A stretch of 64,000 bases of DNA from a bacterium (GTDB lineage Bacteria > Krumholzibacteriota > Krumholzibacteriia > LZORAL124-64-63), in contig JANOEP010000066.1 of NCBI GenBank assembly GCA_031441465.1, positions 32,001-96,000 of the forward strand, in the 5' to 3' direction. Below, in pieces: positions 42,633 to 60,094 of this stretch. Within the stretch, counting starts at the first letter, position 1. The number at the start of each line of letters is the position of its first letter. Under the pieces are notes generated by a model. The model ran no database searches and had not been told where the DNA came from. It saw only the letters and a program-made list of their open reading frames with translations. Made by a program: the position numbers and the translations under genes.

Positions 42633-45600
42633 ATGATGCGCTCTTGGTGCAAGGCTGCCGTCCTGCTGCTGTCACTGCTGGTCCTGGGCTCGGTCGCCGG
42701 CGCGGCGTGGGTTCCGGCGGGCGGCGGTGCCGTCTCGCCGCCGCTGGTCATCGCGACCGGGTCCGGTGACGCGGTCACGCTCCAGATCGAGGTGCCCGGT
42801 TACCATCTCGACGGCGCGCTGGTCGACGGCCGCACCTACGCCAAGCTGGGGCTGCCCGGCGAGGCCTGGCTGATGGAGAAGGGCCTGCCCGAGTTGCCGA
42901 TGATCAGCCGCAGCGTCGCCATCGCCGGCACCGGCGAGCCGTTCCTGCGGGTCGTCGCCAGCGAGTGGACCGAGACCGCCGTCGATCCCGTCCTGCCCTC
43001 CAAGGGGCACCTGACCCGCGACCTCGATCCGGCGGGCATCGCCTTCACCTTCGACGCCCTCTACCGCGACGGTGGGGTCTACCCCCGCGAAGCGGCGAGC
43101 CTCGGCGACCCGTTCATCGTGCGCGACGAGCGCGGCGTCTCCCTGCGCGTGGTGCCCTTCCAGTACGACGCCGGCCGCGGCGTGCTGCGCGTGCTGCGCC
43201 GCATGACGATCGAGGTCCTCACCAAGGGGACCGGCGGCCTGAACGAGCTGCCGAGCGGCGCCACCGCCGCCGTCGACCCCGAGTTCGCCCGCATCTACCG
43301 CGGGATGTTCGCCAACTACGGCGCCGACAAGTACGTCGCCATCGGCACGACCGGCCGGATGCTCGTCGTCACGGCCGACGCCTACCAGGGCGCGCTGGCC
43401 CCGTTCATCGCCTGGAAGCAGCAGAAGGGCATCCCGGTCGAGATGATCACGATGTCCTCGGTGGGCGGGACCGCCACCGGCGTCCAGAGCGCCATCACCA
43501 GCCGCTACGGCTCGGCCGACGGCCTCACCTACGTGGTGCTCGTGGGCGACATCGCCGACGTGCCCACGCGCATCGGCACCTACGAGAGCGCGAAGTCGGA
43601 CCCGACCTACGCCATGGTCGCGGGCTCCGACCGCTACCCCGACCTGTTCGTCTCGCGCATCTCCGCTGCCAACGTCAACGAGGTCCAGCTCCAGGTCGCC
43701 AAGTTCGTACGCTACGAGCGCGATCCCGACACGGGCGCCGCCGCCGAGTGGTACCACAAGGCGACCGGCCTGGCCTCGAACGAGGGCTCGCCGACCGACT
43801 ACGAGCGCTGCAACCTGCTGCGCGCCGACCTGCTCGGCTACACCTTCACCTACGTCGACCAGATCTACCAGCCGACCGGGACCACGGCGATGATCTCGGC
43901 CGCCCTGAACGAGGGCCGCAGCCTGGTCAACTACATCGGCCACGGCAGCGGCACCAGCTGGGGCAACCCGCCGTTCGCCAACAGCAACGTCCTGGCCCTG
44001 ACCAACGGCTGGAAGCAGCCCTGGATCCTGGACGTGAGCTGCTCCAACGGCGACTTCTCCACTTCCGTCTGCTTCGCCGAGGCCTGGCTGCGCGCCGGCT
44101 CGGTCGCCCAGCCCAACGGCGCCGTCGCCACCTACTCGGCCTCGACCCTGGCCTCCTGGGTGCCGCCCTGCGAGATGCAGACCCACGCCGTGGACCTGCT
44201 CGTCGCCGAGCAGGCCAACATCCTGGGCGCCCTGTACTACTACGGCGGCATGAAGGTGCTCGACCTCTATCCCACGGGCGAGGGCCCGAAGCTCATCGAG
44301 CAGTACAACATCTTCGGCGACTGCTCGCTGATGGTGCGCACCGACGCGCCGACGGCGATCGCGCCGACGCACCTGCCCGTCGTCCACCTCGGCACGCCGA
44401 GCTTCCAGGTGAACACCGGCGCTCCGGGCGCCGTGGCCTGCCTCTACCGCGACGGCGTCATCCACGGCACGGCCGTCGCCGACGCGGGCGGCCTGGCGAA
44501 CATCGTGCTGGACGTGCCGGTGACCACCCCCGGCGACATGACCCTCACGGTGACCGGCTACAACCTCACCACCTACCAGGCGACCCTGCTCGCGATCAAC
44601 CCCTCGGTGGTCGTCCTGGATCCCGACACGATCGACGCCAACGTGGCGACGGACGTCACCGTGACGGTGTTCGGTCCCGACGGCACGACGCCGCTGCCCG
44701 GCATCGACGTCCGGGCCGAAGGCCTGGGCTACACCTCGGCCACCGTCGCGACGAATTCGTCGGGCGTGGCCGTGATCGGCGTCACCTACCCGTACGGCCC
44801 CTCGCTGGCCGTCGTCGGGCAGGATCCCGCCGAGACCTACGAGCTGTTCCGCGTGTCCCTGGCGGTCGACGCCCTGGCCCTGACGTCGCCGGACCTGACG
44901 GTGACCACGGACATCGGCATGACCGACCTGTTCCCGCTGAACCTGCCGGGCACCCTGCACGCGACGTCCGGCGAGGCCGGCGCCACGCTGCACGCGGTGC
45001 TGCCGGAAGGCGGCGAGCAGTCGACCGGCGCCTCGAGCCTGACGCTGACCGCGGCCCAGACGGGCGTGGTCACGGGCATCATTGCGCTCAGCGGCTACGA
45101 CCTGTACAGCGAGACGTTCGACGTGATCGAGGCCTACGGCCAGCTGACCGGTCACGTGGACCTGGCCGGCACGCCGGCGGTCGGCGCGGTCGTGCACGGC
45201 CTGGACGACCTCGGCGTCGAAGTGTTCTCGGCGACGACCAACGCGTCGGGCAACTACGACGTGGGTGAGGACGTCCTGGTCGACGACTACACCATCGCGG
45301 TGGACGTCTTCGGCTACCTGCACTTCGAGCAGGCGATGTTCCTGAACTACGGTCCCAACACGTTCGACGTCGCGATGGTCGCGGCCCCGTCGGGCGTGCT
45401 GTCGGGCCTGATCACCGACTCGGCGACGCTCCTGCCCCTGCAGGGGGTCGTGCGCGTGTACCGCAGCGACAACAACCTGCTGTACACCGAGACGACGAGC
45501 GACGCCGCGGGCGCGTTCACGACCGCGGCGCTGCCGTACTTCACGTACACGGTCGCGGTGCGCGCCTCGCACCACGTGCCGGTGAGCGTGGCGGTCGAGA

Positions 45601-47288
45601 TCGACGCGGCGACGGTCGTGAAGGACTTCGCGCTCGAGCCGACCAACGGCGACATCCTGATCGTCGACGACGACGCCGTCGCCCGCTGGGCCCCCGACAA
45701 GTTCGACGAGAAGGGCGAACTGGTCTCCGTCGGCTACGAGATCGGCGAGGAGCGCTCCACCGCCGCGCTGGCGGCGGAGTTGGAGGCGCTCGGCTACGGG
45801 GTGACCGTGCAGGCGGCGGCGGCCACCGTGCCGGCCGACTGGCCGCTCTACGACCTGGTCGTGGCGGCCTGCGGCGCCAACACCAACCCGCTGGGCAGCG
45901 CCGCCCTGCGCAGTGCGCTGATCTCTTACGTGCAGGCCGGCGGCCACCTGCTGCTCGAGGGCGGCGAACTCGTCTATGTGCACAACGCCTCCGGCGCCTT
46001 CGCCTCGACCGTGATGCACACCAACGACTGGAACCACGACACCAGCGGCGCGTTGACCGTCGCCGCGCCCACGCACCACGTGATGTCGGTGCCCAACGTG
46101 ATTTCCGGTCCGATCGCGATCACCTACACCGGGTACGGCGACCAGGACGCCGCGACGCCCCTGGCCGACGCCGTGAAGGTGGGCGCCTGGGCGTCCTACC
46201 CGACCGACGCCGGCGTGATCTGCTACGACCCGAACCCGTCGCCGACGGGTGGCCAGATCGCGTTCTTCACCTTCAAATACGCGGCCCTGAACGCCGCGGG
46301 CCGTGCGCCGCTGCTGGAGAACACCGTGCAGTGGCTGCTGGCGTCGGAGTTCGGCACCGGCAGCGTGAGCGGCCGCGTCGACCTGCAGGGCTCGGCCGAC
46401 GACTCGGGCGTGCTGGTCGAGGGCCTCCCCAGCGGCGGCTCGACGTACACCGACGCGGCGGGCAACTACACCCTGCCGGGCCTGTTCGCGGGCACCACCA
46501 TGATCCGCGCCAGCAAGTTGGCGTGGAGCATCGCCTCGACGTCGGTGACGCTGGCCGAGGGCCAGCAGCTGACGGGCGTGAACCTGACGCTGACGCCGGT
46601 CAGCGAACTCACGCAGTGCCTGCAGCCGGGTCTGTCGATCATCGACTACGGGACCGTGACCAGCCCGATGGCCCTGGCGATGGGAGCGGGCGTGACCGTG
46701 ACCAGCGTCGAGGTGTTCGTGGACATCGTGCACACGTACCAGGGCGACCTGACGGTGGACCTGACGTCGCCGGCGGGCACGACGGTGCGCCTGCACAACC
46801 GCACGGGTAGCGGCACGGACAACATCTACGGATGGTATCCGGACACGCTGACCCCGGCGGGCGACCTGGGCCTGTTCGCGGGCCAGGTTTTGGACGGCAA
46901 CTGGACGCTGACGGTCGCCGATCTGGCCGGCGGCGATGTCGGCACGTTGAGCGAGTGGTGCCTGAAGATCGTGTACGGCGGCGGCTCGACGGGCGCGGGA
47001 GACGCGCCGGCGGTGCTGTCGTTGGCGCAGAACTTCCCGAACCCGTTCAACCCGTCGACGACGATCACGTTCGCGGTGCCGCGCGCGGGCCGGGTGGACC
47101 TGCAGGTCTACGACCTGGCGGGCCGGCAGGTGCGGACGCTGGTCGGCGGCGAGCTGGCGGCCACGACGCACACGGTGGTCTGGGACGGTCGTGACGACAC
47201 GGGCCGCCAAGCGGCTAGCGGCACGTACTACTACCGCCTGCGCAGCGAGGGTCAGGAACTGACCCGCAAGATGACCTTGTTGAAGTAA
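42633..47288 (+). CDS. Gingipain-like C25 cysteine peptidase (propeptide, C25, carboxypeptidase-regulatory-like, P-domain, FlgD-Ig CTD)
   Basis: Signal peptide; GLPELP propeptide; YVVLVGD; NYIGHGSGTSW (His) and DVSCSNG (Cys); HTYQGDL P-domain; LAQNFPNPFNPSTTITF...TRKMTLLK. Confidence 0.88.
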   Translation: MMRSWCKAAVLLLSLLVLGSVAGAAWVPAGGGAVSPPLVIATGSGDAVTLQIEVPGYHLDGALVDGRTYAKLGLPGEAWLMEKGLPELPMISRSVAIAGTGEPFLRVVASEWTETAVDPVLPSKGHLTRDLDPAGIAFTFDALYRDGGVYPREAASLGDPFIVRDERGVSLRVVPFQYDAGRGVLRVLRRMTIEVLTKGTGGLNELPSGATAAVDPEFARIYRGMFANYGADKYVAIGTTGRMLVVTADAYQGALAPFIAWKQQKGIPVEMITMSSVGGTATGVQSAITSRYGSADGLTYVVLVGDIADVPTRIGTYESAKSDPTYAMVAGSDRYPDLFVSRISAANVNEVQLQVAKFVRYERDPDTGAAAEWYHKATGLASNEGSPTDYERCNLLRADLLGYTFTYVDQIYQPTGTTAMISAALNEGRSLVNYIGHGSGTSWGNPPFANSNVLALTNGWKQPWILDVSCSNGDFSTSVCFAEAWLRAGSVAQPNGAVATYSASTLASWVPPCEMQTHAVDLLVAEQANILGALYYYGGMKVLDLYPTGEGPKLIEQYNIFGDCSLMVRTDAPTAIAPTHLPVVHLGTPSFQVNTGAPGAVACLYRDGVIHGTAVADAGGLANIVLDVPVTTPGDMTLTVTGYNLTTYQATLLAINPSVVVLDPDTIDANVATDVTVTVFGPDGTTPLPGIDVRAEGLGYTSATVATNSSGVAVIGVTYPYGPSLAVVGQDPAETYELFRVSLAVDALALTSPDLTVTTDIGMTDLFPLNLPGTLHATSGEAGATLHAVLPEGGEQSTGASSLTLTAAQTGVVTGIIALSGYDLYSETFDVIEAYGQLTGHVDLAGTPAVGAVVHGLDDLGVEVFSATTNASGNYDVGEDVLVDDYTIAVDVFGYLHFEQAMFLNYGPNTFDVAMVAAPSGVLSGLITDSATLLPLQGVVRVYRSDNNLLYTETTSDAAGAFTTAALPYFTYTVAVRASHHVPVSVAVEIDAATVVKDFALEPTNGDILIVDDDAVARWAPDKFDEKGELVSVGYEIGEERSTAALAAELEALGYGVTVQAAAATVPADWPLYDLVVAACGANTNPLGSAALRSALISYVQAGGHLLLEGGELVYVHNASGAFASTVMHTNDWNHDTSGALTVAAPTHHVMSVPNVISGPIAITYTGYGDQDAATPLADAVKVGAWASYPTDAGVICYDPNPSPTGGQIAFFTFKYAALNAAGRAPLLENTVQWLLASEFGTGSVSGRVDLQGSADDSGVLVEGLPSGGSTYTDAAGNYTLPGLFAGTTMIRASKLAWSIASTSVTLAEGQQLTGVNLTLTPVSELTQCLQPGLSIIDYGTVTSPMALAMGAGVTVTSVEVFVDIVHTYQGDLTVDLTSPAGTTVRLHNRTGSGTDNIYGWYPDTLTPAGDLGLFAGQVLDGNWTLTVADLAGGDVGTLSEWCLKIVYGGGSTGAGDAPAVLSLAQNFPNPFNPSTTITFAVPRAGRVDLQVYDLAGRQVRTLVGGELAATTHTVVWDGRDDTGRQAASGTYYYRLRSEGQELTRKMTLLK

Positions 47289-48203: not shown

Positions 48204-49703
48204 CTAGGTGAAGAAGATGAACGTGATCACCACGAAGGTCGTCACCAGGATCGGCAGCGAGTACTTCAGCATGTAGCCGAAGAAGCTGGGCATCGGGACG
48301 CCGGCCTCCTCGGCGATGGACTTGACCATGAAGTTGGGCGCGTTGCCGATGTAGGTGTTGGCGCCCATGAAGACCGAGCCGGCGGAGATCGCCGTCAGGT
48401 CCCGGATGAAGTCCGGGTTCCGCAGGCTCGCGTCCAGGTAACCCAGCAGGCCGGGCACCGCGCTCTCGGGCATGCCGATGCTGCCCAACGCCGTGTTGAA
48501 GAAGGTCAGGTAGGTGGGCGCGTTGTCCAGGAAGCTGGACAGGACGCCGGTGACCCAGAAGTAGTGCGCGGGCGACTTCACGCAGGCGGCCACGCCGGCC
48601 AGGGCGCCTGCGGACCCGACCTGTAGGATCGCCAGGGCGGGGATGATGGTCATGAAGATCCCGGCGAAGAGGTACGCCACCTCCTGGATCGGGCCCCAGG
48701 AGAACTCGTTCTGCTTGCGGATCGCCTTGGTGGTGAAGCGCAGCGAGAGCGCGCCCATCAGGATCAGGATCGCGTCGCGCAGCCAGTTCTGCAGCTCGAC
48801 CTGCACGTGCCCATAGATGGGGACCGCCGGCAGCTTGAGCGAGCCCGAGAGCAGCACGCCGCCCATGATCCCCAGCAGGCACAGCAGGTTCTGCAGGCCC
48901 TCGATGCGGATGCCCTTGCTCTGGCCGTCGTGCCCGTCCTCGGGCGCCGCGGCGGGTTCCTTGCGGAACCAGTAGGTGTCCAGGGCGAAGAAGATCACCA
49001 GCAGGATCGCCACGGCCGTCAGCGCGTGCGGCAGCAGCGCCTTGGTGACCCAGAAGAACGGCACCCCGTGCAGGAAGCCCAGAAACAGCGGCGGGTCGCC
49101 CAGGGGGGTCAGTGAGCCGCCGATGTTGGCCACCAGGAAGATGAAGAACACCACGGTGTGGACGCGGTAGCGGCGCCAGGCGTTGGCCCGCAGCAGGGGG
49201 CGGATCAGGACCATCGCTGCGCCGGTCGTCCCGATCCACGAGGCCAGCAGCGTGCCGATCAGCAGCAGCAGCGTGTTGACCTTCGGCGAGCCGCGCAGGC
49301 TACCGCCGACGTAGATCCCGCCGGCCACGGTGAACAGGGCCCACAGCAGGATGATGAAGGGGAGGTAGTCGATCACGTAGATGTGGATGATCGACTGCAG
49401 CGCCTCGCCCCGGAAGGCGACCAGGAACGGCACCGCGAACACCAGCGACCAGAAGGCCGCGACCTTGGGGAAGTGGCGGTGCCAGAAGTGGGGCGCCAGC
49501 AGGGGAAAGACCGCGATCGAGAGCAGGATCCCGACGAACGGCAGGACGCTCCACAGGGGTAGTTGCGTGCCCAACGCGGCGGTGTCTGGACCGTGGCCGT
49601 CGAGCGCCGCCGCGATGCCGGGCAGCAGCATCGGGGCGAGGAACGCCGCCAGGACGACGGACGCCGCACGTCGACGGGAATGCAGGGTGCGACCGAAGCA
49701 CAT
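48204..49703 (-). CDS. Putative Na+/H+ antiporter (IT-superfamily membrane transporter)
   Basis: Many TMs; IGTTGAAMVLIRP, NIGGSLTPLGDPPLFLGFL, SSFLDNAPTY, GANTYIGNAPNFMVKSIAE; start approximate. Confidence 0.82.
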   Translation of the reverse strand: MCFGRTLHSRRRAASVVLAAFLAPMLLPGIAAALDGHGPDTAALGTQLPLWSVLPFVGILLSIAVFPLLAPHFWHRHFPKVAAFWSLVFAVPFLVAFRGEALQSIIHIYVIDYLPFIILLWALFTVAGGIYVGGSLRGSPKVNTLLLLIGTLLASWIGTTGAAMVLIRPLLRANAWRRYRVHTVVFFIFLVANIGGSLTPLGDPPLFLGFLHGVPFFWVTKALLPHALTAVAILLVIFFALDTYWFRKEPAAAPEDGHDGQSKGIRIEGLQNLLCLLGIMGGVLLSGSLKLPAVPIYGHVQVELQNWLRDAILILMGALSLRFTTKAIRKQNEFSWGPIQEVAYLFAGIFMTIIPALAILQVGSAGALAGVAACVKSPAHYFWVTGVLSSFLDNAPTYLTFFNTALGSIGMPESAVPGLLGYLDASLRNPDFIRDLTAISAGSVFMGANTYIGNAPNFMVKSIAEEAGVPMPSFFGYMLKYSLPILVTTFVVITFIFFT

Positions 49704-49833
49704 GACTTCTCCCGTTCGAGGGTGAGGGGGAGGCGCGTCTCGACGGACGGTTTCCCCTGCAGGTGTCGGCGGGTGCGACATGGAGACTAGGGAGGCGGCA
49801 GGACGGTGTCAACGCAGGTGGTTGGCAGCACTC

Positions 49834-49852
49834 GCTAATGATAATCATTATT
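49834..49852. promoter_or_regulatory. Fur box
   Basis: GCTAATGATAATCATTATT matches GATAATGATAATCATTATC at 17/19; perfect 7-1-7 core TAATGAT-A-ATCATTA. Confidence 0.8.
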
Positions 49853-49972
49853 CAATTATTCATTATTTACCTTGCCTCTCCGGAATCCCGGTGGCAACAT
49901 TCCGCAGGTTTGAGCCGCCGGACTGAACGGATCCACCGGTCGGCACCATGGTTTTGCCGGAAGGAGACCCCC

Positions 49973-51238
49973 TTGAAGACCTGGAAGTTGACCTCCCTGT
50001 TCGTGATCCTCGCGATGCTCATGAGTGTCGCCGCATATGCCGAATCTTGCACCGAGACTTGCGCCGAGACCTGCACCAGCGACATCAAGGTGACGGGCGA
50101 GTCCCGTTACCGGATCCAGATGGACGGAGCGGACCCCTACTTCTTCGACTTCGACGGGGACACCAACCCCACCTGGTTCAGCCAGCTGCGCACCCGCGTC
50201 GGCGTCAAGGCCATGGTCTCGGACAACATGGGCGTGTTCACCCAGTTCCAGGACAGCCGCTTCATCGGCGCCGTCAACGACTTCGGCATCGATCCCGTCC
50301 TGGAAATGCACCAGGGCTACATGTGGTACAAGCCCTGCGAGAAGAGCTGGCTCAAGATGGGCCGCTTCGAGATGAGCCTGCACAACGAGCGCCTCGTGGG
50401 CACCTCCGACTGGAGCATGTACGGCCAGGCGTTCGACGGCGTGATGATGGGCCGCCAGTTCGGTGAGAACATGAAAGCCACCTTCTGGGGCGTCAAGCTG
50501 TACGAGAGCTTCAACCAGTACACCGTGGTCGACGACACCGACGGCACGGATACCGCCGGCGACGACATGTTCTATGGCATCAACTTCTCGTTCCTGAACA
50601 AGGGCGTGGACGTGTTCGCCATGATGAACAGGTCCTTCGCCAACTTCCCCGGCTACGACGAGAACTACATCACTGTCGGCGCCTACAGCGAGCGGACCTT
50701 CGCCGAGAGCTTCGACTACAACGCCATGGTCGCGATGCAGACCGGCAAGGCCGACTTCGGCGCCACCGAGGTCGACGTCAGCGGCATGCTGCTGAACGCC
50801 GAGGTGGGATACACGATGGCCAACGGGATGCGCCTGGCCGGCCTCGTGGACTACACCACCGGCGACGATCCGACGACCACCGACAAGTGGGAAGGTTTCC
50901 ACAACCTGTTCTACAACTCCCACAAGTTCAACGGCATGATGGACATCGTCAACGCCGGCGACTTGGACGAGGGCCTCATGGACATCGGTCTGAAGCTCCT
51001 CTACCCGGTCAACGACAGCTGGTCGGCCATGGGCGAATTCCACAGCTTCGCGACGGTCGAGGAGTACGCGGCGGACAAGACCGCGCTGGGCTCCGAGATC
51101 GACCTGTCCGGCAAGTACGTCGACGGCGGCTTTGCCTGGCAGACCGGCCTCAGCATGTTCTCGCCCAGCGAGGACCGGGCCGGCCCGAACGCCGACAGCC
51201 AGAACTGGCTCTACACGCAGGCCACGATGAGCTTCTAG
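49973..51238 (+). CDS. Outer-membrane beta-barrel porin, alginate-export (AlgE-like) family candidate
   Basis: AAGGAG RBS + TTG start; signal peptide; QLRTRVG, FTQFQDSR, KMGRFE...ERLVG..DW...AFDG; terminal Phe. Confidence 0.75.
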   Translation: MKTWKLTSLFVILAMLMSVAAYAESCTETCAETCTSDIKVTGESRYRIQMDGADPYFFDFDGDTNPTWFSQLRTRVGVKAMVSDNMGVFTQFQDSRFIGAVNDFGIDPVLEMHQGYMWYKPCEKSWLKMGRFEMSLHNERLVGTSDWSMYGQAFDGVMMGRQFGENMKATFWGVKLYESFNQYTVVDDTDGTDTAGDDMFYGINFSFLNKGVDVFAMMNRSFANFPGYDENYITVGAYSERTFAESFDYNAMVAMQTGKADFGATEVDVSGMLLNAEVGYTMANGMRLAGLVDYTTGDDPTTTDKWEGFHNLFYNSHKFNGMMDIVNAGDLDEGLMDIGLKLLYPVNDSWSAMGEFHSFATVEEYAADKTALGSEIDLSGKYVDGGFAWQTGLSMFSPSEDRAGPNADSQNWLYTQATMSF

Positions 51239-51261
51239 TCCTCTCCCGAGGGCAAGACCAC

Positions 51262-51300
51262 GCGCCCCCGGCGGCACCGGCCGCCGGGGGCGTGTCTTTT
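51262..51300 (+). terminator. Probable intrinsic terminator
   Basis: GCGCCCCCGGCGGC-ACCG-GCCGCCGGGGGCGT followed by GTCTTTT. Confidence 0.7.
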
Positions 51301-51322
51301 CGCGGCAGGGGGCGTGTGGGGA

Positions 51323-51994
51323 TCAGCGCCCGGCGGCGGCGATCAGGTCCCTCAGGAAGGGCGCGGCCCCGTTCATCACCAGCTGCACCGCGATGACGGT
51401 CACCAGCAGGCCCATCAGCTTCTCCACGATGCGCATGCCCGTGGGACCGAGGCGCCGCAGGACGGTGTCGGCGGTCAGCAGGATCACCCCGGTCAGCAGC
51501 AGGATCAGGGCGGCCGCGGCGCTGACGATCAGCGCGCCGGTCATGCCGGGGGTCTCGGCCCGCAGCACCATGACCGTGGTGATCGAGGCCGGGCCGGCGA
51601 TCATCGGGATCGCCAGCGGGGTCACCGAGGGGTCGTGGTCGGCGTTGTCGCTCGGATCGGGCCGCGGGCCGGCGCCGGTGGCCTGGTCCAGGCCGGTGTG
51701 CCAGCGCCGCGGCCGGCTCTGGAGCATGTCCAGTCCGACGCCGAAGAAGATCACGCCGCCGGCGATCCGGAAGGCGTCCACCGTGATCCCGAAGGTGCTC
51801 AGCACGGCGCTGCCGGCAAAAGTGAAAAGCAGCAGGACCAGCAGGGACACCAGCAGGGCCTTGACCAGGATACGCCGCTTACGGCCGCGGGACAGGCCCG
51901 CGGTCTGGCCGCTGAAGAAGGGGATGCAGCCCAGCGGGTCGATGACCGCGAACAGGGACGACAGCGAGAGCAGGGCGAATCCGGTCAGGTCCAT
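51323..51994 (-). CDS. MarC family membrane protein
   Basis: LFAVIDPLG, FRIAGG, TPLAIPMIAGPASI, KLMGLL. Confidence 0.9.
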   Translation of the reverse strand: MDLTGFALLSLSSLFAVIDPLGCIPFFSGQTAGLSRGRKRRILVKALLVSLLVLLLFTFAGSAVLSTFGITVDAFRIAGGVIFFGVGLDMLQSRPRRWHTGLDQATGAGPRPDPSDNADHDPSVTPLAIPMIAGPASITTVMVLRAETPGMTGALIVSAAAALILLLTGVILLTADTVLRRLGPTGMRIVEKLMGLLVTVIAVQLVMNGAAPFLRDLIAAAGR

Positions 51995-52090: not shown

Positions 52091-52145
52091 TTGTCTGGCC
52101 GCGTCGCGCCTTATATCCTCGGTTCTATGATCAACGTTCGTTGAC
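52091..52145 (+). promoter_or_regulatory. Promoter plus palindromic operator upstream of decaheme gene
   Basis: TTGTCT (52091) - 17 nt - TATCCT (52114); ATCAACGTTCGTTGAC at 52130-52145. Confidence 0.6.
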
Positions 52146-52169
52146 TTCATCCTGCGCGGAGGGATCCCC

Positions 52170-53078
52170 ATGATGCGTCTGCTCCTCCTCATCGCCGGAC
52201 TGCTCACCCTGCTCGCCGTCGTCGCGGCCGCAGGCGGCGGTTTCGCCGAGCGCGTGGGCATGCCGACCGGCGCGGCCTACGTCGGTTCCCAGGCCTGCCT
52301 GGACTGCCACGACGACGCCGGCACCTTCTACCAGCACACCCCCCATTCCGTGGACCTGGCCCTGTCTGCGCCCGTCTCCGGCGCCAGCGCCTGCGAGGCC
52401 TGCCACGGGCCGGGCAGTCTCCACGTGGAGGCCGGCGGCGAAGGTCCCATCTTCGGCAAGGCCGTCCTGTCCGCTCTGGACGCCGAGGACCGCGCCGAGA
52501 TGTGCCTGCAGTGCCACCAGGACAAGCGCGCCACCTGGTCGGGTTCGCCGCACGCCGGCAGCCCGACCGACTGCGCCGCGTGCCACACCGACGTGGTCCA
52601 CGGCGGTGGCGAGGCCCTGGCGCCGTCCGCCTTCCGGATCGCCGGCGAGTTCTGCCTGCAGTGCCACGCGGCCCAGGCTGCCGACTTCCGCCTGCCGTTC
52701 CGCCATCGGGTGCTCGAGGGCGAGGTCTCCTGCCAGGACTGCCACGCCGTCCACGGCGCGGCGCCCGCCGCCGACCCCCTGGGCGACCTGAACGCGGCCT
52801 GTCTGAACTGCCACACGGAAATGGCCGGCCCCTTCCTCTTCGAGCACGAGGCCGTGTCGGCCGAGGACTGCACGGCCTGCCATCGGCCACACGGTTCGAT
52901 CAACGACAAGCTGCTGACCCAGGACGGCAATTCGCTCTGCCTGCAGTGCCACTACGAGCCGGGATATCCGACCATCGGCGACGTGGACCACGGCGGTTTC
53001 CTGAGCAGCGAAGCGCGCTGCTACGACTGCCATCACGAGATCCACGGTTCGAACCTGAACTCCACCTTCCTGGACTAG
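52170..53078 (+). CDS. DmsE/MtrA-family periplasmic decaheme cytochrome c
   Basis: Signal peptide; 10 CxxCH; family motifs FRLPFRHRVLEGEVSCQDCH and GPFLFEHEAVSAEDCTACHRPHGS. Confidence 0.9.
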   Translation: MMRLLLLIAGLLTLLAVVAAAGGGFAERVGMPTGAAYVGSQACLDCHDDAGTFYQHTPHSVDLALSAPVSGASACEACHGPGSLHVEAGGEGPIFGKAVLSALDAEDRAEMCLQCHQDKRATWSGSPHAGSPTDCAACHTDVVHGGGEALAPSAFRIAGEFCLQCHAAQAADFRLPFRHRVLEGEVSCQDCHAVHGAAPAADPLGDLNAACLNCHTEMAGPFLFEHEAVSAEDCTACHRPHGSINDKLLTQDGNSLCLQCHYEPGYPTIGDVDHGGFLSSEARCYDCHHEIHGSNLNSTFLD

Positions 53079-53091
53079 AAAGGAGCGCGTG

Positions 53092-54987
53092 ATGAAGAAC
53101 CTGCACTTGTCGATGCTGACCGCCGCCGCCGTGGCGCTCCTGGCCGCCGGTGCCGCCGTCGCGGGCGAACTGCCGGCCCAGGCCGACCGGATCTGGTCGG
53201 TTCCCGGGGATCATGTGGGTCTGTTCAGCCACGCCACGCTGACGCTCGACGCTCTGGACAGTTACGGGTATTCGGCGAAAGCGGCCGAGGACTGGCAGCT
53301 GACCGAAAAGTTCCGTTTCTCGTCGGTCTTCGCCTGGAACCGCAACTGGGACTCCGGCCGATGGCTGACCCTGCGCGGCGCCGGCGAGGATGGCGGCCGT
53401 CCCGGCGGCGCCGGCTCGCTGGGCCTGTGGGGCGGTTCGCCCGGAAAGTTCCGGACCTCGGTGACCTACCGCAGCTTCGACCATTATTACGATGGGACCA
53501 GCGAGATGCGCTCGGCGGTGTTCGCCGCGCCGCCGTCGCCGCCGGCCCTCACGCCCACCCCGGTCATGAATTGGAACCGCTTCGAGGCGGCCAGCTCCCA
53601 CCGCGTCTGGAACGGGTTCGGTCTCGAGGGGGGCGTCGCCTTCACGCGGCGCGACGGGATCAAGGGCAGCCTGCTGCGCAGCGGCGCCGGCAGCGCCGTG
53701 CCCGCCCAGAAGCACTTCGGCACGCTGGACCGGCGCGTCTGGGCCGGCGGCGACTACGCCTACGGCAAGCTGGCCACGGATTGGGAAGTGTCCTACCAGA
53801 AGAGCGAAGGCGACCGCGCGCTCGGCACGCGGCACCTCACCACCGACGACCGCACCCTGTGGAGCGGGCGGGTCGGCGGCGCCCTCGAGGTGTCGCCGGC
53901 GTTGCGCCTGGTGGGCCAGGCGATCGGCAGCTACCTCGAGAGCAACCCGCACGAGACCCAGGGGCTGGCCGACCGCGACATCACCTCCGACGCCGTGTCG
54001 GGCACGGGACGCGTCGGCGCGTTGTGGACGCCGGCCCGCGGCACGCGGCTGGACCTGTCCGCGGCCGTCCGCAACCAGAACGTCGACGGCCAGGTCGGTC
54101 CCGACAACGCCGTCGTCCACGCCGTCGATCGCGACCGCACCAGCCAGGACTACCACGCGGCGTTGTCGACGACCCGGCTGCCCTCGACCCGATTGCAGAT
54201 GAGCTACCGCTACCGCACCAGCGACCTCGAGGAGACGACCGCGCAGGACGGCGTGCCCGGCAGCGGCACCGAGGGCGACCTCCAGTCCACCGACCAGCAG
54301 CGCACGAGCCAGGAGGCCTCGTTGCGCGCGCGCACGCGTCTCGGGCACAACGTGACGCTGAAGGCCAAGGCGCAGTGGCGGCAGGAGGAGATCGATTCGG
54401 CCGATACCTGGGACACCGCCGGCGGCGACGCCTGGTTCTACTGGATGGGCGACCGCAAGCGGGACAAGCTGGTCTGGGAGGTCTGCCTGAACACACGGCC
54501 GGTCCCGGGCGTCAGCCTCGACCTCGGCCACCAGACGATCGCGCAGACCTTCGAGCGCGAAGATATTCCCGGTGTCGAGACCACCTGGGACGCCGTGCGC
54601 GGCTTCGCCGTGGCCACCTGGGCCGTCGCGCCGCGCCTGACGCTGCTGGGATCGTTCTCGATGGGGCAGGAGCAGTACGGGATCGACGGCGCCCCGGCCG
54701 TCGCGTCCGACGTCAGCCCTCTGGTCTACGACGCCACGACCGTGCGCTACGCGCCCGGCGCGGTGCTGGACCTCGGCCGCGGTTGGAGTTGCGAGGGCCA
54801 CTACGAGGCCGTCCGTACCACCGACTCGGTCGAGAACGACCTGGACCGCTGGTCGGCCCGCACCAGCTGGCGCTTCGCGGAGAAGCTGACCATGACCGCG
54901 AGTTACCGTCGCTGCGAGTTCGACGAGAACCGCTGGGACGATTACATCTTCGACCTGTACTCGCTGTCGGTGGGCGGCGTTTTCTAG
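53092..54987 (+). CDS. MtrB/PioB-like outer-membrane beta-barrel porin
   Basis: AAGGAG RBS, signal peptide, amphipathic strands, terminal YSLSVGGVF, directly downstream of decaheme; family inferred from context. Confidence 0.72.
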   Translation: MKNLHLSMLTAAAVALLAAGAAVAGELPAQADRIWSVPGDHVGLFSHATLTLDALDSYGYSAKAAEDWQLTEKFRFSSVFAWNRNWDSGRWLTLRGAGEDGGRPGGAGSLGLWGGSPGKFRTSVTYRSFDHYYDGTSEMRSAVFAAPPSPPALTPTPVMNWNRFEAASSHRVWNGFGLEGGVAFTRRDGIKGSLLRSGAGSAVPAQKHFGTLDRRVWAGGDYAYGKLATDWEVSYQKSEGDRALGTRHLTTDDRTLWSGRVGGALEVSPALRLVGQAIGSYLESNPHETQGLADRDITSDAVSGTGRVGALWTPARGTRLDLSAAVRNQNVDGQVGPDNAVVHAVDRDRTSQDYHAALSTTRLPSTRLQMSYRYRTSDLEETTAQDGVPGSGTEGDLQSTDQQRTSQEASLRARTRLGHNVTLKAKAQWRQEEIDSADTWDTAGGDAWFYWMGDRKRDKLVWEVCLNTRPVPGVSLDLGHQTIAQTFEREDIPGVETTWDAVRGFAVATWAVAPRLTLLGSFSMGQEQYGIDGAPAVASDVSPLVYDATTVRYAPGAVLDLGRGWSCEGHYEAVRTTDSVENDLDRWSARTSWRFAEKLTMTASYRRCEFDENRWDDYIFDLYSLSVGGVF

Positions 54988-55015
54988 ACGCCAACCCTCG
55001 GAGACGGCTGTTCCG

Positions 55016-55047
55016 GGAACCCCGCAAAGGCGGGGTTCCTTTTTTTT
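55016..55047 (+). terminator. Intrinsic terminator
   Basis: GGAACCCCGC-AAAG-GCGGGGTTCC followed by 8 T. Confidence 0.9.
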
Positions 55048-55078
55048 GGCCGCCACCGCGGGGACCCCGCCCGAGCGG

Positions 55079-55094
55079 GTGAACGATCGTTCTC
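55079..55094. promoter_or_regulatory. Palindromic operator copy
   Basis: GTGAACGATCGTTCTC (perfect core GAACGATCGTTC). Confidence 0.55.
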
Positions 55095-55197
55095 GTATCT
55101 GCAAGCTATCGCTAATGTTATAACACCTAGTAAGGACATATGAGTTATCTTATTGCATGGCAATCAGTTTCATGGGTTATTTTCATAACATTCTGGA

Positions 55198-55249
55198 TTG
55201 ACGGGCCGAATTGGATGGGTAGGTTGGAGCAGAGTCAACGTTCGCTCAC
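55198..55249 (+). promoter_or_regulatory. Promoter plus operator upstream of TetR-cytochrome-rhodanese operon
   Basis: TTGACG (55198) - 16 nt - TAGGTT (55220); GTCAACGTTCGCTCAC at 55234-55249. Confidence 0.55.
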
Positions 55250-55267
55250 CTCGTTCGAGGGAACGCC

Positions 55268-55903
55268 ATGGCCTCCGAAACCCGACACGCCAACCGCCGG
55301 GGCGAGATCCTCGACCACGCGTCGCGGCTCTTCTCGGCTCACGGCTACGACGGCACCGCCATCCGGCTGATCGCCCGCGCCAGCGGCGTGACCGAGGCCG
55401 CCATCTACCGTCACTTCGACGGCAAGGCCCAGCTCTACGACGAGGTCATCCGCGCCAAGGCGCGCGAGCACGACATCGCGGGCGACCTCGCGACCAGTCG
55501 GGGCCGCGGCAGCGTCGAGGACGTCCTGCGCGTGGTGGCCAACCACGTCCTGTCCCTGGCGGCGCGCGATCCCGAAATCGTGCGGCTGATGTCCAACAGC
55601 AGCCTCGAGAACGTCCAGGGCCGCGCGACGCTCTTCCGCGAAGTGCGCAGCCCCTACATCGACTTCCTGATCGAGGAGATCTCGCGGCGCATGGCGACGG
55701 GGGAGGTCCGCCGGATCGACCCCGTCATCACCAGCCGTTGCTTCGTGGGCATGGTCATGGACTGTGCCCTCAACGCCGGCATGTGGAGCCGGTTCGCGGG
55801 CACGGAGGTCGACGCGCAGACCGTGGTCTGCAACAACGTGCCGATCTTCGCCCGCGGCCTCACCAACGGCGGCGCCGGGTCGCCGTCCAACGACGGAGAG
55901 TGA
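55268..55903 (+). CDS. TetR/AcrR family regulator
   Basis: RRGEILDHASRLFSAHGYDGTAIRLIARASGVTEAAIYRHFDGK HTH. Confidence 0.92.
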   Translation: MASETRHANRRGEILDHASRLFSAHGYDGTAIRLIARASGVTEAAIYRHFDGKAQLYDEVIRAKAREHDIAGDLATSRGRGSVEDVLRVVANHVLSLAARDPEIVRLMSNSSLENVQGRATLFREVRSPYIDFLIEEISRRMATGEVRRIDPVITSRCFVGMVMDCALNAGMWSRFAGTEVDAQTVVCNNVPIFARGLTNGGAGSPSNDGE

Positions 55904-55905
55904 CC

Positions 55906-57327
55906 ATGCACAAGCACGCAGCGGTCGCGGTCCTCGCGTTCCTGGTCCTCGGCAGCCTGTGGGGGTGCGAGAACGACACCTCCAACGGCACCGGGGATCC
56001 GAACGTCGTGCTGACCGACAAGACCTGCCTCGGCTGCCACAGCAGCCGGGACATGCTCATCGCCAACCTGGGCGAGGAGGCGACATCCAAGGCCGAGCCC
56101 ACCGACAAGGCCGACGGCTGAGGCGGCTCCGTACCCGCGCTGGAGGCGTGGGAAAAGGTCATCATCACCGGCACCAACGGGCAGCGGTTCCTCGACAGCG
56201 TGCACGGTCAGCGCTCCTGCCAGAGCTGCCACGGCGGCCCGGCCGACCGCACCTTCGAGACGATGGCGGAGGCGCACACCGGCATGGTCGCCGATCCCAG
56301 CGCGCACGGCGCCTGCGACGGCTGCCACGCCGAGGAGGCGGCGGCCACCGCGAACAGCCTGCACTCGAACCAGTGGGGCTACATCGCGATCATCGAGCAG
56401 CGCGGGCGCTGCACTTTCGAAGGCTCCGGCTTCGAAACCTACTTCGACCAGAAGTGCGGCAGCTGCCACACGACCTGCGGGCAGTGCCACGTCAGCCGGC
56501 CCAACAGCGTGGGCGGCGGCTTCCCGCTGATCGGCACCTACTACTCGCACCGCTTCCGGGCGTCGCCGGACATGACCGAGCAGTGCACGGCCTGCCACGG
56601 TTCGCGCGTGGGCAACGACTTCCTGGGGCAGAGCGAGGGCAACGTGCCCGACGTCCACCGCCAGCCCTACGGCTGGCAGTGCAAGGACTGCCACACCAAG
56701 GAGGAGATCCACGGCGACGATCAGTACGAGGGCGACCATTACGAGCACCGCTACGAGGTCAAGACGATGCCCCGTTGCGAGGACTGCCACGGCGAAGGCC
56801 AGGACGACGGCTGGGACAACGCCTACCACGCCATGCACGTGGGCAACGACGGCCTGAACCTGCAGTGCCAGGTCTGCCACTCGCAGCCCTACAAGAACTG
56901 CACGAACTGCCACAACCTGCTCACGGGCGGGGACAAGTCGGACAAGTTCGACATCGATCCCAGCCGCCTGCAGCTCAAGATCGGCCGCAACCTGAATCCC
57001 AACCGCGATGAGTACGACTACGTCGTCGTGCGTCACGCGCCGACCGATCCCGGCACCTTCGCCGAGTGGGGCCTGGATCTGCCCGGTTACCTGGACGCGC
57101 CGACCTGGCTCTACGCCTCCCCGCACAACATCGTGCGGCGCACGGCGCAGACGACGGTCGGGGAGGGGCAGACCTGCAGCACGGCCTGCCACGAGTCGCC
57201 CGACGGGCTCGACGGCTTCCTGCTGCGCGAGTCCGACCTGTACGCCGAAGACGGGGTGACCCGCCTGCCCGACTACGAAGCGAACCTGGGCGTGGTGATC
57301 CCGCCGACGTTCCCCGACTCGAAGTGA
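55906..57327 (+). CDS. Probable selenoprotein multiheme c-type cytochrome lipoprotein (10 CxxCH + 1 CxxxCH); in-frame TGA 56119-56121
   Basis: ATG 55906, lipobox LWG-C, CLGCH, then KADG-TGA-GGSVPALEAWEKV in frame with ORF 56200..57327, which lacks its own signal peptide. Confidence 0.82.
56134..56152 (+). promoter_or_regulatory. Candidate bacterial SECIS hairpin
   Basis: CCCGCGC-TGGAG-GCGTGGG (one G-U pair; U-G closure leaves a GGA loop) about 20 nt after the TGA. Confidence 0.55.
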
Positions 57328-57336
57328 CGTGAAAGA

Positions 57337-57364
57337 CCGCCCGGCGGCGTGTGCCGCCGGGCGG
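57337..57364 (+). other. Intercistronic GC-rich hairpin without U-tract
   Basis: CCGCCCGGCGGC-GTGT-GCCGCCGGGCGG, 12-bp perfect stem. Confidence 0.6.
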
Positions 57365-57427
57365 CCGACCCGCGGCGCCCGGCGCCGCCAACCGAGGGGC
57401 CGCGAGGCCCGAACAAGGAGAGACGAC

Positions 57428-59308
57428 ATGATGAAACGCTGGACCCTGATGGCGTTGCTGCTGATCGCCATGGCGGCCATGTGGGGCTGCTCGAGCGACG
57501 ACGATCCCGTGGATCCGCCGGTCACGACCCCGTTCGAGACGATGGCCGCGGCGGTCGAGGCCTACCTCAACGACAACACGGACTGCCCGGGCGTGGTCTC
57601 GGCGCAGGCCCTGCATGACAACCTCGACGACTACACGGTTGTGGACATTCGCTCGGCGGCCGACTACTTGGCCGGCCACATCCCCGGCGCCTACAACTCG
57701 TCGCTCGCCACTATCCTGACGGACGTGGGCACGACGATCCCCACCGACAAGACCATCGTCGTCGCCTGCTACAGCGGCCAGACCGCCGGGCACGCGAAGA
57801 TCGCCCTGGAGCTCTCGGGCGTCGAGGACGTCAAGACCTTGGGCTTCGGCATGGCGTCCTGGAGCAGCACCCTGGCCGGGGTAATGAACACCAACATCGG
57901 CGACAACCTGCTGGCTCCCGAGACGACGAACAACAACGGTGGACTGACCGTGCATGAGTTCCCGACGCTGACCGGCACCAACGCGACGGTCGTCGCCGAG
58001 CGCGTGGCCGCCATGATCGCGGGCGGCTTCAAGTCGATCAACTACTCGGAGATCCGCGACAACCTGGACGACTACTACATTGTGAACTATTTCGGCGAGG
58101 CGGACTACCTCGGCACCGGCACTGCCGGCGTCCCCGGCCACATCCCCGGCGCTTACCAGTTCACGCCCTACGCCAGCCTCGGCCTCGAGCAGATGCTCGA
58201 CAAGCTGCCCAGCGACGGCACCACGATCGTCGTCTACTGCTGGTCCGGCCAGCACAGTAGCCAAGTCACCGCGGCCCTGAACATGTTGGGCTACAACGCC
58301 AAGTCGCTGAAGTTCGGCGCCAACCACCTGTTCCACAGCGCGCTGACGACCAACAACTGGTCCGCGGCCTCGACCCACGACTTCGAACTCGAAGTCGGCG
58401 GCGCGCAGACGCCCGAGTTCGCGGCCATGTACGCGGCCGTCGACGCCTACCTGAACGACAACACCGACAGCCCGGGCGTGATCACCGCCCAGGCGCTCTA
58501 CGACAACTTCGACGACTACACGGTCATCGACATCCGCTCGGCGACCGACTACGCGGCCGGACACATCACGGGTGCCTACAATTCGAGCCTGGCCACGCTG
58601 CTGAACGACCTGGTCGGGACGATCCCCGCCGACAAGCCCTACGTGGTCACCTGCTACACCGGCCAGAGCGCCGGCCACGCCAAGGTCGCGATGGAGCTGA
58701 TGGGCTACGAGGAAGTCAAGTCGCTGAAGTGGGGCATGTGCTCCTGGAACTCGACGCTCGCCGGCCGTTTGAACGACAACGTCGGCGACTACCTGCCCAT
58801 GGCCGAGACGACGAACAACAACGGATCGCTGACCGCCCGCGCCTACCCGACGCTGGCGGACGAGGATCCCGCGACCGTGGTCGAGGACCGCGTCGCCGCC
58901 ATGCTGGCGGCCGGGTTCCAGAGCGTCACCTGGACGGCGCCGACGCCGCCGGATCTGACTCCCTACTTCATCGTGAACTACTTCGGCGTGGCGGACTACG
59001 AGGGCACCGGCACCAACGGCGTTCCCGGCCACATCCCCGGCGCCTTCCAGTTCACGCCCTACACGAGCCTGAAGATCGGCGAGATGCTGCCTTACCTGCC
59101 CAGCGACGGCACGCCCATCCTGGTGTACTGCTGGACCGGTCAGACCAGCAGCCAGGTCGTGGCGGCCCTGAACATGCTGGGCTACAACGCCAAGTCGCTG
59201 AGCTACGGCTCCAACCGGCTGTTCCATACTTCGCTGCTGGCGAACAAGTGGACGGCGGCCGAGACGCACGATTTCCCGCTCTCGACGGCGGTCCCGGCCC
59301 TGTTCTGA
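57428..59308 (+). CDS. Four-domain rhodanese (sulfurtransferase) lipoprotein built from an internal duplication
   Basis: AAGGAG RBS, lipobox MWG-C; GHIPGA/GHITGA x4; active loops CYSGQTA, CWSGQHS, CYTGQSA, CWTGQTS. Confidence 0.88.
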   Translation: MMKRWTLMALLLIAMAAMWGCSSDDDPVDPPVTTPFETMAAAVEAYLNDNTDCPGVVSAQALHDNLDDYTVVDIRSAADYLAGHIPGAYNSSLATILTDVGTTIPTDKTIVVACYSGQTAGHAKIALELSGVEDVKTLGFGMASWSSTLAGVMNTNIGDNLLAPETTNNNGGLTVHEFPTLTGTNATVVAERVAAMIAGGFKSINYSEIRDNLDDYYIVNYFGEADYLGTGTAGVPGHIPGAYQFTPYASLGLEQMLDKLPSDGTTIVVYCWSGQHSSQVTAALNMLGYNAKSLKFGANHLFHSALTTNNWSAASTHDFELEVGGAQTPEFAAMYAAVDAYLNDNTDSPGVITAQALYDNFDDYTVIDIRSATDYAAGHITGAYNSSLATLLNDLVGTIPADKPYVVTCYTGQSAGHAKVAMELMGYEEVKSLKWGMCSWNSTLAGRLNDNVGDYLPMAETTNNNGSLTARAYPTLADEDPATVVEDRVAAMLAAGFQSVTWTAPTPPDLTPYFIVNYFGVADYEGTGTNGVPGHIPGAFQFTPYTSLKIGEMLPYLPSDGTPILVYCWTGQTSSQVVAALNMLGYNAKSLSYGSNRLFHTSLLANKWTAAETHDFPLSTAVPALF

Positions 59309-59330
59309 TCCGACTCGAAATCGGCGGGAA

Positions 59331-59360
59331 GTGGCGGGGGGCCGAGAGGCTCCCCGCTAT
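59331..59360 (+). terminator. Hairpin after rhodanese gene, possible terminator
   Basis: GTGGCGGGGGGCC-GAGA-GGCTCCCCGCTAT with GNRA loop; weak U-tract. Confidence 0.5.
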
Positions 59361-59485
59361 CTGTAAGGACCGTTAACCAGCAGGACCGAGCGGGGCAATC
59401 CCATAGCGGGATTAAAGTTGACAAATTAATATCAATCGTTAACTTTGGGAGGCAGGGGGTCGCTGACCGCATCGGGAGGGTGGCC

Positions 59486-60094
59486 ATGTCCAGAACACGC
59501 AACCTGGAACGACGCGACGAAATCCTCGAGAACGCGTCCAGGCTCTTCGCCCAGCACGGCTTTGAAGGTGCCTCGATCCGCCTCATCGCCCGAGAGTGCG
59601 GGATCACCGAGGCGGCCATCTACCGCTACTTCGAAAGCAAGGAACACCTGTTCGAGTCGGTGGTGCGGGCCAAGGCCCGCGCGCACGACATCGAGGGGTA
59701 CCTCGTCGGGCAGCGCAAGCTCGGCGACGTGCTGCAGGTCCTGACGACGGTGGCCCACCACATCCACCAGCTGTCGCGCGATGATCCGCTGCTGCTGCCG
59801 CTGATGGTGATGAGTTCGCTGGGCACCCACCGCGGCAACGACGTGCTGTTCTGCGAGCTGCGCCTGCCCTACATCCGCTTCCTGGCGCGGGAGCTGGCCG
59901 AGCGGCGGGACGCCGGCGAGGTCAAGAACGTCGACCCCTACATCACGGCGCGCTGCTTCGTGGGGATGATCATGGCCTGCGCGCTGAACGCGGACCAGTG
60001 GCGCGACTTCGAACGTCTGGACCTGTCGGCCGCGACGGTGATCGACAACAACATCCCGATCTACGCCGACGGCCTGCGGGCCGTGCCCGCCTAG
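59486..60094 (+). CDS. TetR/AcrR family regulator, paralog of 55268..55903
   Basis: RRDEILENASRLFAQHGFEGASIRLIARECGITEAAIYRYFESK HTH. Confidence 0.92.
   Translation: MSRTRNLERRDEILENASRLFAQHGFEGASIRLIARECGITEAAIYRYFESKEHLFESVVRAKARAHDIEGYLVGQRKLGDVLQVLTTVAHHIHQLSRDDPLLLPLMVMSSLGTHRGNDVLFCELRLPYIRFLARELAERRDAGEVKNVDPYITARCFVGMIMACALNADQWRDFERLDLSAATVIDNNIPIYADGLRAVPA

Follow-up and report, generated by a model that had tools for sequence, protein, structure and literature searches.

How bacteria respire elemental sulfur (S0) when they have no molybdenum polysulfide reductase began to be understood only in 2026, with the work on MccSep of Geobacter (PMC13510729). ExtKL (GSU2937-2936) of Geobacter sulfurreducens is now described as MccSep, a periplasmic pentahaem tetramer in which the selenocysteine (Sec, U) U325 lies in a mobile D-G-U-P loop beside a His/Cys haem, and which reduces polysulfide, selenite less well, and is essential for S0 respiration (PMC13510729). 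Encoded alongside MccSep are ExtH, a rhodanese lipoprotein, and ExtI, a porin-like protein (PMC5877670, PMC6148476). The present analysis concerns a cluster of six genes, lettered A to F, at positions 52091..60094 of a 64 kb stretch of bacterial DNA (contig JANOEP010000066.1; the whole stretch is called the window below). An initial annotation had compared this cluster with the Geobacter ext genes and had taken ExtKL for a Sec-containing multihaem cytochrome; the Sec stood, and the haems are five, not many (PMC5877670, PMC13510729).

The cluster encodes a lipoprotein cytochrome with 11 haem motifs and, almost certainly, one Sec (gene D), followed by a lipoprotein with four rhodanese domains (gene E). 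Relatives of D were found in at least 553 species-level genomes, and the best 80 loci were kept for the counts given below; labels such as L018 and L052 denote loci of this set, and L092 is likewise a related locus. The D-E pair is an ancient conserved core, a TetR-family gene upstream of D is common (43 of the 80 loci), and an MtrAB-like pair accompanies D-E only in the clade of the window (28 of 80). In our best reading, to which we give about an even chance, the cluster encodes a conduit-fed, Sec-dependent reductase of sulfane sulfur or selenium; that estimate covers jointly the view that it forms a regulated respiratory module of two transcription units. All six genes are co-oriented on the + strand of the open reading frame (ORF) list, in agreement with the initial annotation:

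52170..53078, + strand: gene A, decahaem cytochrome of the periplasm, DmsE/MtrA family (302 aa with a signal peptide and 10 CXXCH)
53089..54987, + strand: gene B, predicted MtrB-like outer-membrane beta-barrel (632 aa, 26 strands in the AlphaFold model)
55268..55903, + strand: gene C, TetR-family regulator (211 aa, TetR_N (PF00440) at 8.7e-17, Cys158 and Cys166)
55906..57327, + strand: gene D, lipoprotein cytochrome with 11 haem motifs and Sec72 (473 aa, lipobox LWGC)
57428..59308, + strand: gene E, lipoprotein with four rhodanese domains (626 aa, lipobox MWGC)
59480..60094, + strand: gene F, TetR paralogue of C (204 aa, 53% identical to C, same Cys pair)

Gene D was read across an in-frame TGA codon, which is followed by a hairpin resembling a selenocysteine insertion sequence (SECIS):

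56119..56121, + strand: in-frame TGA read as Sec72, motif KADG-U-GGSVPALEAWEKV
56134..56152, + strand: SECIS-like hairpin with a 7-bp stem (56134-56140/56146-56152) and the loop UGGAG, from 12 nt past the UGA

The residues spanning Sec72 are ...KADG-U-GGSVPALEAWEK, and in 76 of the 80 loci the alignment has an in-frame TGA at this position (G-U-GG). It persists to about 40% identity within the family motif G(D/E)G-U-GG.VP.LE.WEKV, upstream of which lie a lipoprotein signal and one CXXCH. Loci with the conserved codon come from metagenome-assembled genomes (MAGs) labelled Krumholzibacteriota, Latescibacterota, Eisenbacteria, Phycisphaerae, KSB1, Calditrichia, Ignavibacteria and Dehalococcoidia. 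The other four loci (L045, L064, L075 and L052, the last with Q) carry W, Q, R or G at the Sec place, and Cys was found there in none of the 80. In an ungapped alignment of 77 sequences, 86.9% of the cells of the hairpin stem were paired, as compared to 22-52% in slid controls; pair 20-30 is CG in 29 sequences and AU in 26, and the covariation score was reached by none of 500 shuffles. A second register (columns 15-20 with 24-29), in which distant clades use a shifted stem, was paired to 49.5% overall and was rejected as a general SECIS because it fits these distant clades only.

The host genome contains the Sec machinery, with selB (359 bits), selA (437 bits), a Sec-type selD (343 bits) and a tRNA-Sec (67.8 bits, anticodon tca), all above curated cut-offs. 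TGA also terminates genes C and D, and the codon is therefore not reassigned genome-wide. Were the TGA within D a genuine stop codon, two products would be expected, a monohaem lipoprotein of 71 aa and a separate cytochrome, unless the locus is a pseudogene. Gene callers do split D, most database homologues begin right after the TGA, and the single-sequence fold of the window hairpin is not significant (z -0.55). This explanation is hardly credible in view of the conserved codon with its flanks (G-U-GG..LE.WEKV), the covarying hairpin and the complete Sec machinery, and because the remaining 375-aa haem-rich ORF has no signal peptide and, in the window, no start codon before 56200. The TGA thus almost certainly encodes Sec72, as had been proposed, a point that the sequence comparison appears to settle short of protein chemistry. 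As a separate observation, the selD match (G000:C25:35277-36200, in the same genome outside the window) has one in-frame TGA, and the selenophosphate synthetase of the host is therefore probably itself a selenoprotein.

The haem motifs of D, initially counted as 10 to 11, comprise 10 CXXCH and one CX3CH. All 11 are invariant in the D family, as opposed to 10 invariant non-motif His residues, and therefore one haem may be the catalytic one; Sec72 is the sole invariant thiol-like residue besides the lipobox Cys. The structural model of D has a mean predicted local distance difference test score (pLDDT) of 82.1, with residues 58-71 disordered (pLDDT < 50). Residues 97-473 of the model were aligned with the octahaem tetrathionate reductase (OTR) structure 1sp3_A at a VIA-align Z of 8.8 and a root-mean-square deviation of 4.5 over 277 residues with 18% sequence identity, and the runner-up reached only Z 3.3. 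Foldseek also ranked 1sp3 first, but with an E of 0.26. The resemblance of the model to OTR, Sec72 and a haem short of an invariant His together suggest that D would be an enzyme rather than a plain wire.

D and 45 family members matched no NCBIfam model above noise, D found nothing among PDB sequences at E<=1, and no curated family model naming the family was found. The MtrC/MtrF domain PF22113 was matched by D at 23.6 bits, below the cut-off of 30. Matches of the family to ExtM, ExtN and ExtO were set aside as trivial (20-25 bits as compared to cut-offs of 200-800); they run over haem-motif stretches, some 50 residues long for ExtM and some 150 for ExtN/ExtO. The literature search yielded only ExtKL/MccSep and general selenoproteome papers, the table of a 2026 review being covered in passages. 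MccSep homologues all have five haem motifs according to the text of PMC13510729, whose lists in data S1 and S2 lay outside the search. Within the phylum of the window, a D homologue at E<=1e-30 was found in 70 of 208 genomes; the count was 46 of 125 for high-quality genomes and six of six within the genus.

The partner protein E matched the Rhodanese family (PF00581) at 1e-48 in 4 stretches, and its catalytic residues C114, C271, C409 and C568 are invariant across 27 homologues. E is an internal duplication of a two-domain unit whose halves are 66% identical at the protein level. The gene halves (57500-59305) share 78-79% DNA identity. As the four-domain form is common to the whole clade and the halves are similar, either the duplication happened long ago or homogenisation keeps the two halves alike. 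In distant phyla the rhodanese partner is a lipoprotein with two domains and about 340 aa, and in the clade of the window it is a four-domain protein of about 620 aa. The N-terminus of E is C-SSDDDP, and relatives have C-S(S)DDD(D), e.g. C-SDDDD. SDDDD is described as a surface-lipoprotein export signal of Bacteroides fragilis (PMC5080379), and by analogy E may be located at the cell surface.

A rhodanese gene lies directly downstream of D in 70 of the 80 loci and anywhere in the locus in 73, so that cytochrome and rhodanese co-occur across phyla. Three of the seven rhodanese-less loci end <=125 nt past D, and four have room for such a gene (L052, L064, L070, L079). Among judgeable loci, the rhodanese is missing from two of three non-Sec forms (L052, L064) and from two of 74 Sec forms (L070, L079), which links loss of Sec to loss of the rhodanese. 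The Q form L052 has kept A-B and lacks both TetR and rhodanese. In L092:8912-11209, a single frame with one TGA encodes 766 aa, in which a lipoprotein signal is joined to two rhodanese domains and to the cytochrome with its 11 haems; fusions of this type may lie behind the Joint Genome Institute (JGI) name 'thiosulfate/3-mercaptopyruvate sulfurtransferase' carried by many such cytochromes. In L079 (11208-12805, from a MAG labelled Dehalococcoidia), D is followed by a 4Fe-4S protein with a twin-arginine translocation (TAT) signal and a cytochrome b561-type membrane protein, which looks like a different electron-input module, and in L070 by a pyridine-nucleotide disulfide oxidoreductase. Clustering of the neighbourhoods revealed no gene conserved with D-E beyond TetR, decahaem and barrel. 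While the co-occurrence expected in the initial annotation was thus found for D and E, the six genes did not prove to be one conserved unit, with F as a separate copy in L018-L021 only, the closest relatives of the window.

A rival explanation is that the module handles selenium instead of sulfur. In that case selenite or tellurite would be respired or detoxified at the cell surface and the rhodanese would serve as Se carrier, which we regard as unlikely. MccSep reduces selenite too, but favours polysulfide about sevenfold (PMC13510729). Loss of ExtI is reported to impair selenite and tellurite reduction, and rhodaneses are able to carry selenium according to a reference cited in the same paper (PMC5877670). 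The NCBIfam label of the Geobacter ext genes is 'selenite/tellurite reduction operon'. On the other hand, Se oxyanions are scarcer than sulfur in the habitats of the related MAGs, and the sequence itself cannot tell S from Se.

Genes A and B are an MtrAB/DmsEF-type pair, as first annotated. A passed the DmsE family model TIGR03508 (206.4 bits, cut-off 192.2), scored 204.7 bits with the GSU2203 family model, below its cut-off of 325, and matched Paired_CXXCH_1 at 6.9e-26. The AlphaFold model of B (pLDDT 82.4) is a 26-strand barrel, for which the top Foldseek match was MtrB of the Mtr complex (6r2q_B; E 5.1e-18, TM 0.62), followed by TonB-dependent transporters at about 1e-10 and TM 0.43. By sequence B is weakly MtrB-like: Pfam MtrB_PioB (PF11854) gave 17.7 bits, under the cut-off of 23, and was matched at E<=0.01 by 3 of 20 B homologues, while a profile of B matched no PDB sequence. 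According to the model, B is an MtrB-type barrel adjoining the decahaem A. The genes A, B and C jointly lie upstream of D in 28 of the 80 loci, the order A-B-C-D-E was found in 27 of the 61 loci having >=4.5 kb upstream, and in a further five loci B and C are visible as far as the contig edge. A candidate NapC/NirT-type quinol dehydrogenase is encoded elsewhere in the host genome.

The presence of A and B raises the question of whether the cluster is an MtrCAB-like conduit for insoluble metals or electrodes, with D in place of MtrC and with Sec and rhodanese as accessories. The type of A-B speaks for this, as do the nature of D as a multihaem lipoprotein with its sub-threshold PF22113 match and the retention in L052 of A-B beside a Sec-less D without rhodanese. 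We nevertheless find it quite improbable: A-B are missing beside D-E in 52 of 80 loci, some of them from MAGs labelled Dehalococcoidia, metal reduction has no use for the rhodanese pairing or the conserved Sec, and the fold of D is nearest to a catalytic octahaem enzyme, with MtrC not among the matches at Z>=2, an absence that by itself says little.

The best reading also includes regulation of the two transcription units. The following putative regulatory elements were found in the cluster, the promoter-like hexamers having been read by eye:

52091..52118, + strand: promoter-like hexamers TTGTCT-N16-TATATC ahead of A
52131..52144, + strand: operator-like palindrome TCAACGTTCGTTGA, 25 nt upstream of the start codon (ATG) of A
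55015..55040, + strand: intrinsic terminator 3' of B, strong, with an 11-bp stem, 8 GC pairs and a T7 tail
55198..55225, + strand: promoter-like hexamers TTGACG-N16-TAGGTT ahead of C
55235..55248, + strand: operator-like site TCAACGTTCGCTCA, 20 nt upstream of the start codon (ATG) of C
59432..59443, + strand: shorter variant of the operator-like site, TCAATCGTTAAC, preceded by a TTGACA box and lying upstream of F

The terminator, which the initial annotation does not mention, lies between A-B and C-D-E, and F follows C-D-E behind its own promoter-like box. A promoter consensus scan gave no site at its threshold within the cluster. An ATCTTG/TTGAC box resembling the hexamers ahead of A and TTGACA-type boxes upstream of C homologues are conserved in relatives. 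The sites TCAACGTTCGTTGA and TCAACGTTCGCTCA are the sole exact matches to TCAACGTTCGYTSA in the window, where with <=2 mismatches three matches were counted versus a mean of 1.08 in the chance control. Stronger support for an operator than this window count is the conservation of the palindrome in relatives, in which a 16-bp palindrome of the type GTAAACGTTCGCTTAC stands directly behind TTGACA-type boxes and palindromes of the form GTnAACGTTyrnTnAC occur upstream of A homologues. The palindrome is found upstream of C where C has its own promoter and upstream of A where A-B-C-D-E are one unit; it also occurs in loci without A-B, and the TCAATCGTTAAC variant is conserved in L018-L021. The operator-like motif described in the initial annotation as shared within the cluster is thereby extended to the homologues of A and C.

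As judged from sequence, C and F have the makings of TetR repressors, with an N-terminal helix-turn-helix and a predicted palindromic operator at their own promoter. Of 51 TetR homologues, 47 retain Cys158 and 48 retain Cys166, within the conserved helix segment R-C-F-V-G-M-x-M-x-C-A, and this Cys pair could be a thiol-based sensor.

In the mechanism proposed for the best reading, A would thread the barrel B and carry electrons from the periplasm across the outer membrane. D would be the lipoprotein enzyme, with a multihaem core like that of OTR and an N-terminal arm bearing one extra haem and the Sec in a glycine-rich loop (G-U-GG). E would pick up sulfane sulfur (polysulfide, S0, thiosulfate) or selenium as a persulfide or perselenide and present it to D, where the selenolate of Sec72 would attack the bound chalcogen and electrons from the haem chain would cleave the Se-S or Se-Se bond, so that sulfide or selenide would be released. 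The TetR proteins would bind the palindromes behind both promoters and let go when a sulfur or selenium signal modifies their conserved Cys pair. What the analysis shows is the gene content, the recoding signals for Sec, the conserved D-E pairing, the operator motif and the modelled folds. Of these steps, we infer the surface location, the passage of electrons from A-B to D, the transfer from E to D, the substrate, the reductive direction and the TetR signal.

Several points weigh against this reading. The terminator separates A-B from C-D-E, and D-E occur without MtrAB-like genes nearby in the said 52 of 80 loci, in most phyla, so that the link to the conduit is a local addition. The structural match of D to 1sp3 is middling by its Foldseek E-value, and Sec72 adjoins the low-confidence stretch of the model. 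The replacement of Sec by W, Q, R or G and never by Cys is unusual for a catalytic Sec, and the residue could be dispensable in some lineages. The SDDDD export rule has been tested solely in Bacteroidota, and to our knowledge no member of the D family has been studied experimentally. Finally, MtrAB-type conduits also run in the oxidising direction elsewhere, where the homologues MtoAB and PioAB take electrons up. Accordingly oriented, the module would take electrons from reduced sulfur outside the cell (thiosulfate, sulfide, S0 or metal sulfides), which D and E would oxidise, and pass them inward via A-B. The MccSep authors liken their mechanism to reversed thiosulfate oxidation by TsdA and SoxAX (PMC13510729), and Acidithiobacillus, as cited in PMC6148476, induces an exported rhodanese when on metal sulfides; two haem-copper oxidases are encoded in the host genome. 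Since the sole studied Sec-haem enzyme, MccSep, works reductively, and since neither the cluster nor the conserved neighbours include Sox or Dsr genes, an oxidising role seems rather improbable.

A more far-reaching proposal, which goes beyond the reductase reading and which we advance tentatively, as possible though well short of an even chance, is that the D family constitutes a widespread molybdenum-free class of chalcogen reductases. The Sec on the flexible N-terminal arm would act at, or ligate, the haem of the OTR core without a conserved His partner, and the rhodanese would supply the substrate. A lineage-specific move to the surface and wiring to MtrAB would then allow respiration of solid S0 or Se0 without uptake, with the TetR sensing polysulfide via its Cys pair.

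Two metatranscriptome libraries of relatives contain contigs, 85-99% alike to the window, in which each of the six genes is partly covered; D and E are bridged by one contig (56538-57997), C and D by another (55359-56127). They provide weak support for expression of the cluster in relatives, and DNA may have been carried over into the libraries. The host genome comprises 3.49 Mb and is 96.8% complete. The window encodes LptD and a gingipain-like protease, and therefore the cell is, as far as can be told from these genes, diderm and of the Fibrobacteres-Chlorobi-Bacteroidetes (FCB) kind. The protease is a 1551-aa C25 peptidase (42633-47285) with a P-domain and a C-terminal FlgD_ig-like domain. 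Directly upstream of the cluster (48204-51994), a CitMHS_2 transporter, a barrel of the alginate-export family and a MarC protein are encoded, some or all of which also adjoin the cluster in L017-L021, L024, L031, L039 and L063. A further multihaem cytochrome gene at 34106-35266 matches Cytochrome_C554 and the MtrC/MtrF domain.

With D, a second Sec-containing multihaem protein, unrelated to MccSep and with its own rhodanese, comes into view in at least 553 species-level genomes, unnamed by curated models and split by gene callers. Surveys of MAGs commonly count MtrAB-type conduits as genes of iron reduction or iron oxidation (e.g. PMC9769843), and if the module acts on sulfur or selenium, such iron assignments in FCB-group phyla would need review. 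If the proposed reading is true, the cluster would offer a way to reduce sulfur extracellularly, and its TetR would be a candidate sulfur sensor for which a predicted operator is defined.

Like MccSep and the ext genes, the cluster brings together a multihaem cytochrome containing Sec, a lipoprotein of the rhodanese family and a barrel of the outer membrane; further shared traits are the placement of the Sec within a D/E-G-U loop and a proposed logic of Sec plus haem for the reduction of S-S bonds. TetR regulators are likewise found near some ext clusters of Desulfuromonadales (PMC6148476). D was rejected as an ExtKL/MccSep homologue, as none of 45 D-family members matched NF040886 at E<=0.01 and no PDB sequence was matched; the analogy to ExtKL drawn in the initial annotation does not extend to kinship. 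D has 11 haems and MccSep 5, and the Sec of D lies at residue 72 in an N-terminal arm, that of MccSep at 325 in a C-terminal Ig-like domain. The D family has no conserved haem-ligating free Cys (only the lipobox Cys), and D is a lipoprotein, whereas MccSep is a soluble periplasmic tetramer. The barrel B is MtrB-like with a decahaem partner, while ExtI is porin-like, and neighbourhood clustering gave no conserved gene of the size of ExtJ, the ExtI and ExtJ sequences themselves not having been compared. The suggestion that this module is built differently from extHIJKL is therefore upheld, for the barrel as well as for a cytochrome unrelated by sequence.

The cluster resembles MtrCAB and DmsEFAB of Shewanella in that a decahaem protein of the DmsE/MtrA family adjoins a 26-strand MtrB-type barrel, with a lipoprotein redox partner nearby. 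In DmsEFAB, the electrons of the conduit go to a terminal reductase outside the cell and not to a cytochrome that reduces metals. In contrast to MtrCAB, the partner D is not an MtrC/OmcA protein (the D of the window gave no match to TIGR03507), and in contrast to DmsEFAB it is not a molybdoenzyme. From both systems the cluster differs in that D lies in a separate transcription unit behind a terminator and that a rhodanese and TetR control are added.

OTR of Shewanella oneidensis (1sp3), the best structural match for residues 97-473 of the D model, is a multihaem enzyme with sulfur compounds as substrates, as is proposed for D. The 2026 selenoproteome review lists a Sec form of the corresponding family TIGR04315 (PMC13188914). 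D was rejected as a member of TIGR04315, which was matched by none of the 45 D-family proteins at E<=0.01 and has 8 haems, not 11. Relative to OTR, D has an added N-terminal arm with a haem and the Sec, and a lipid anchor.

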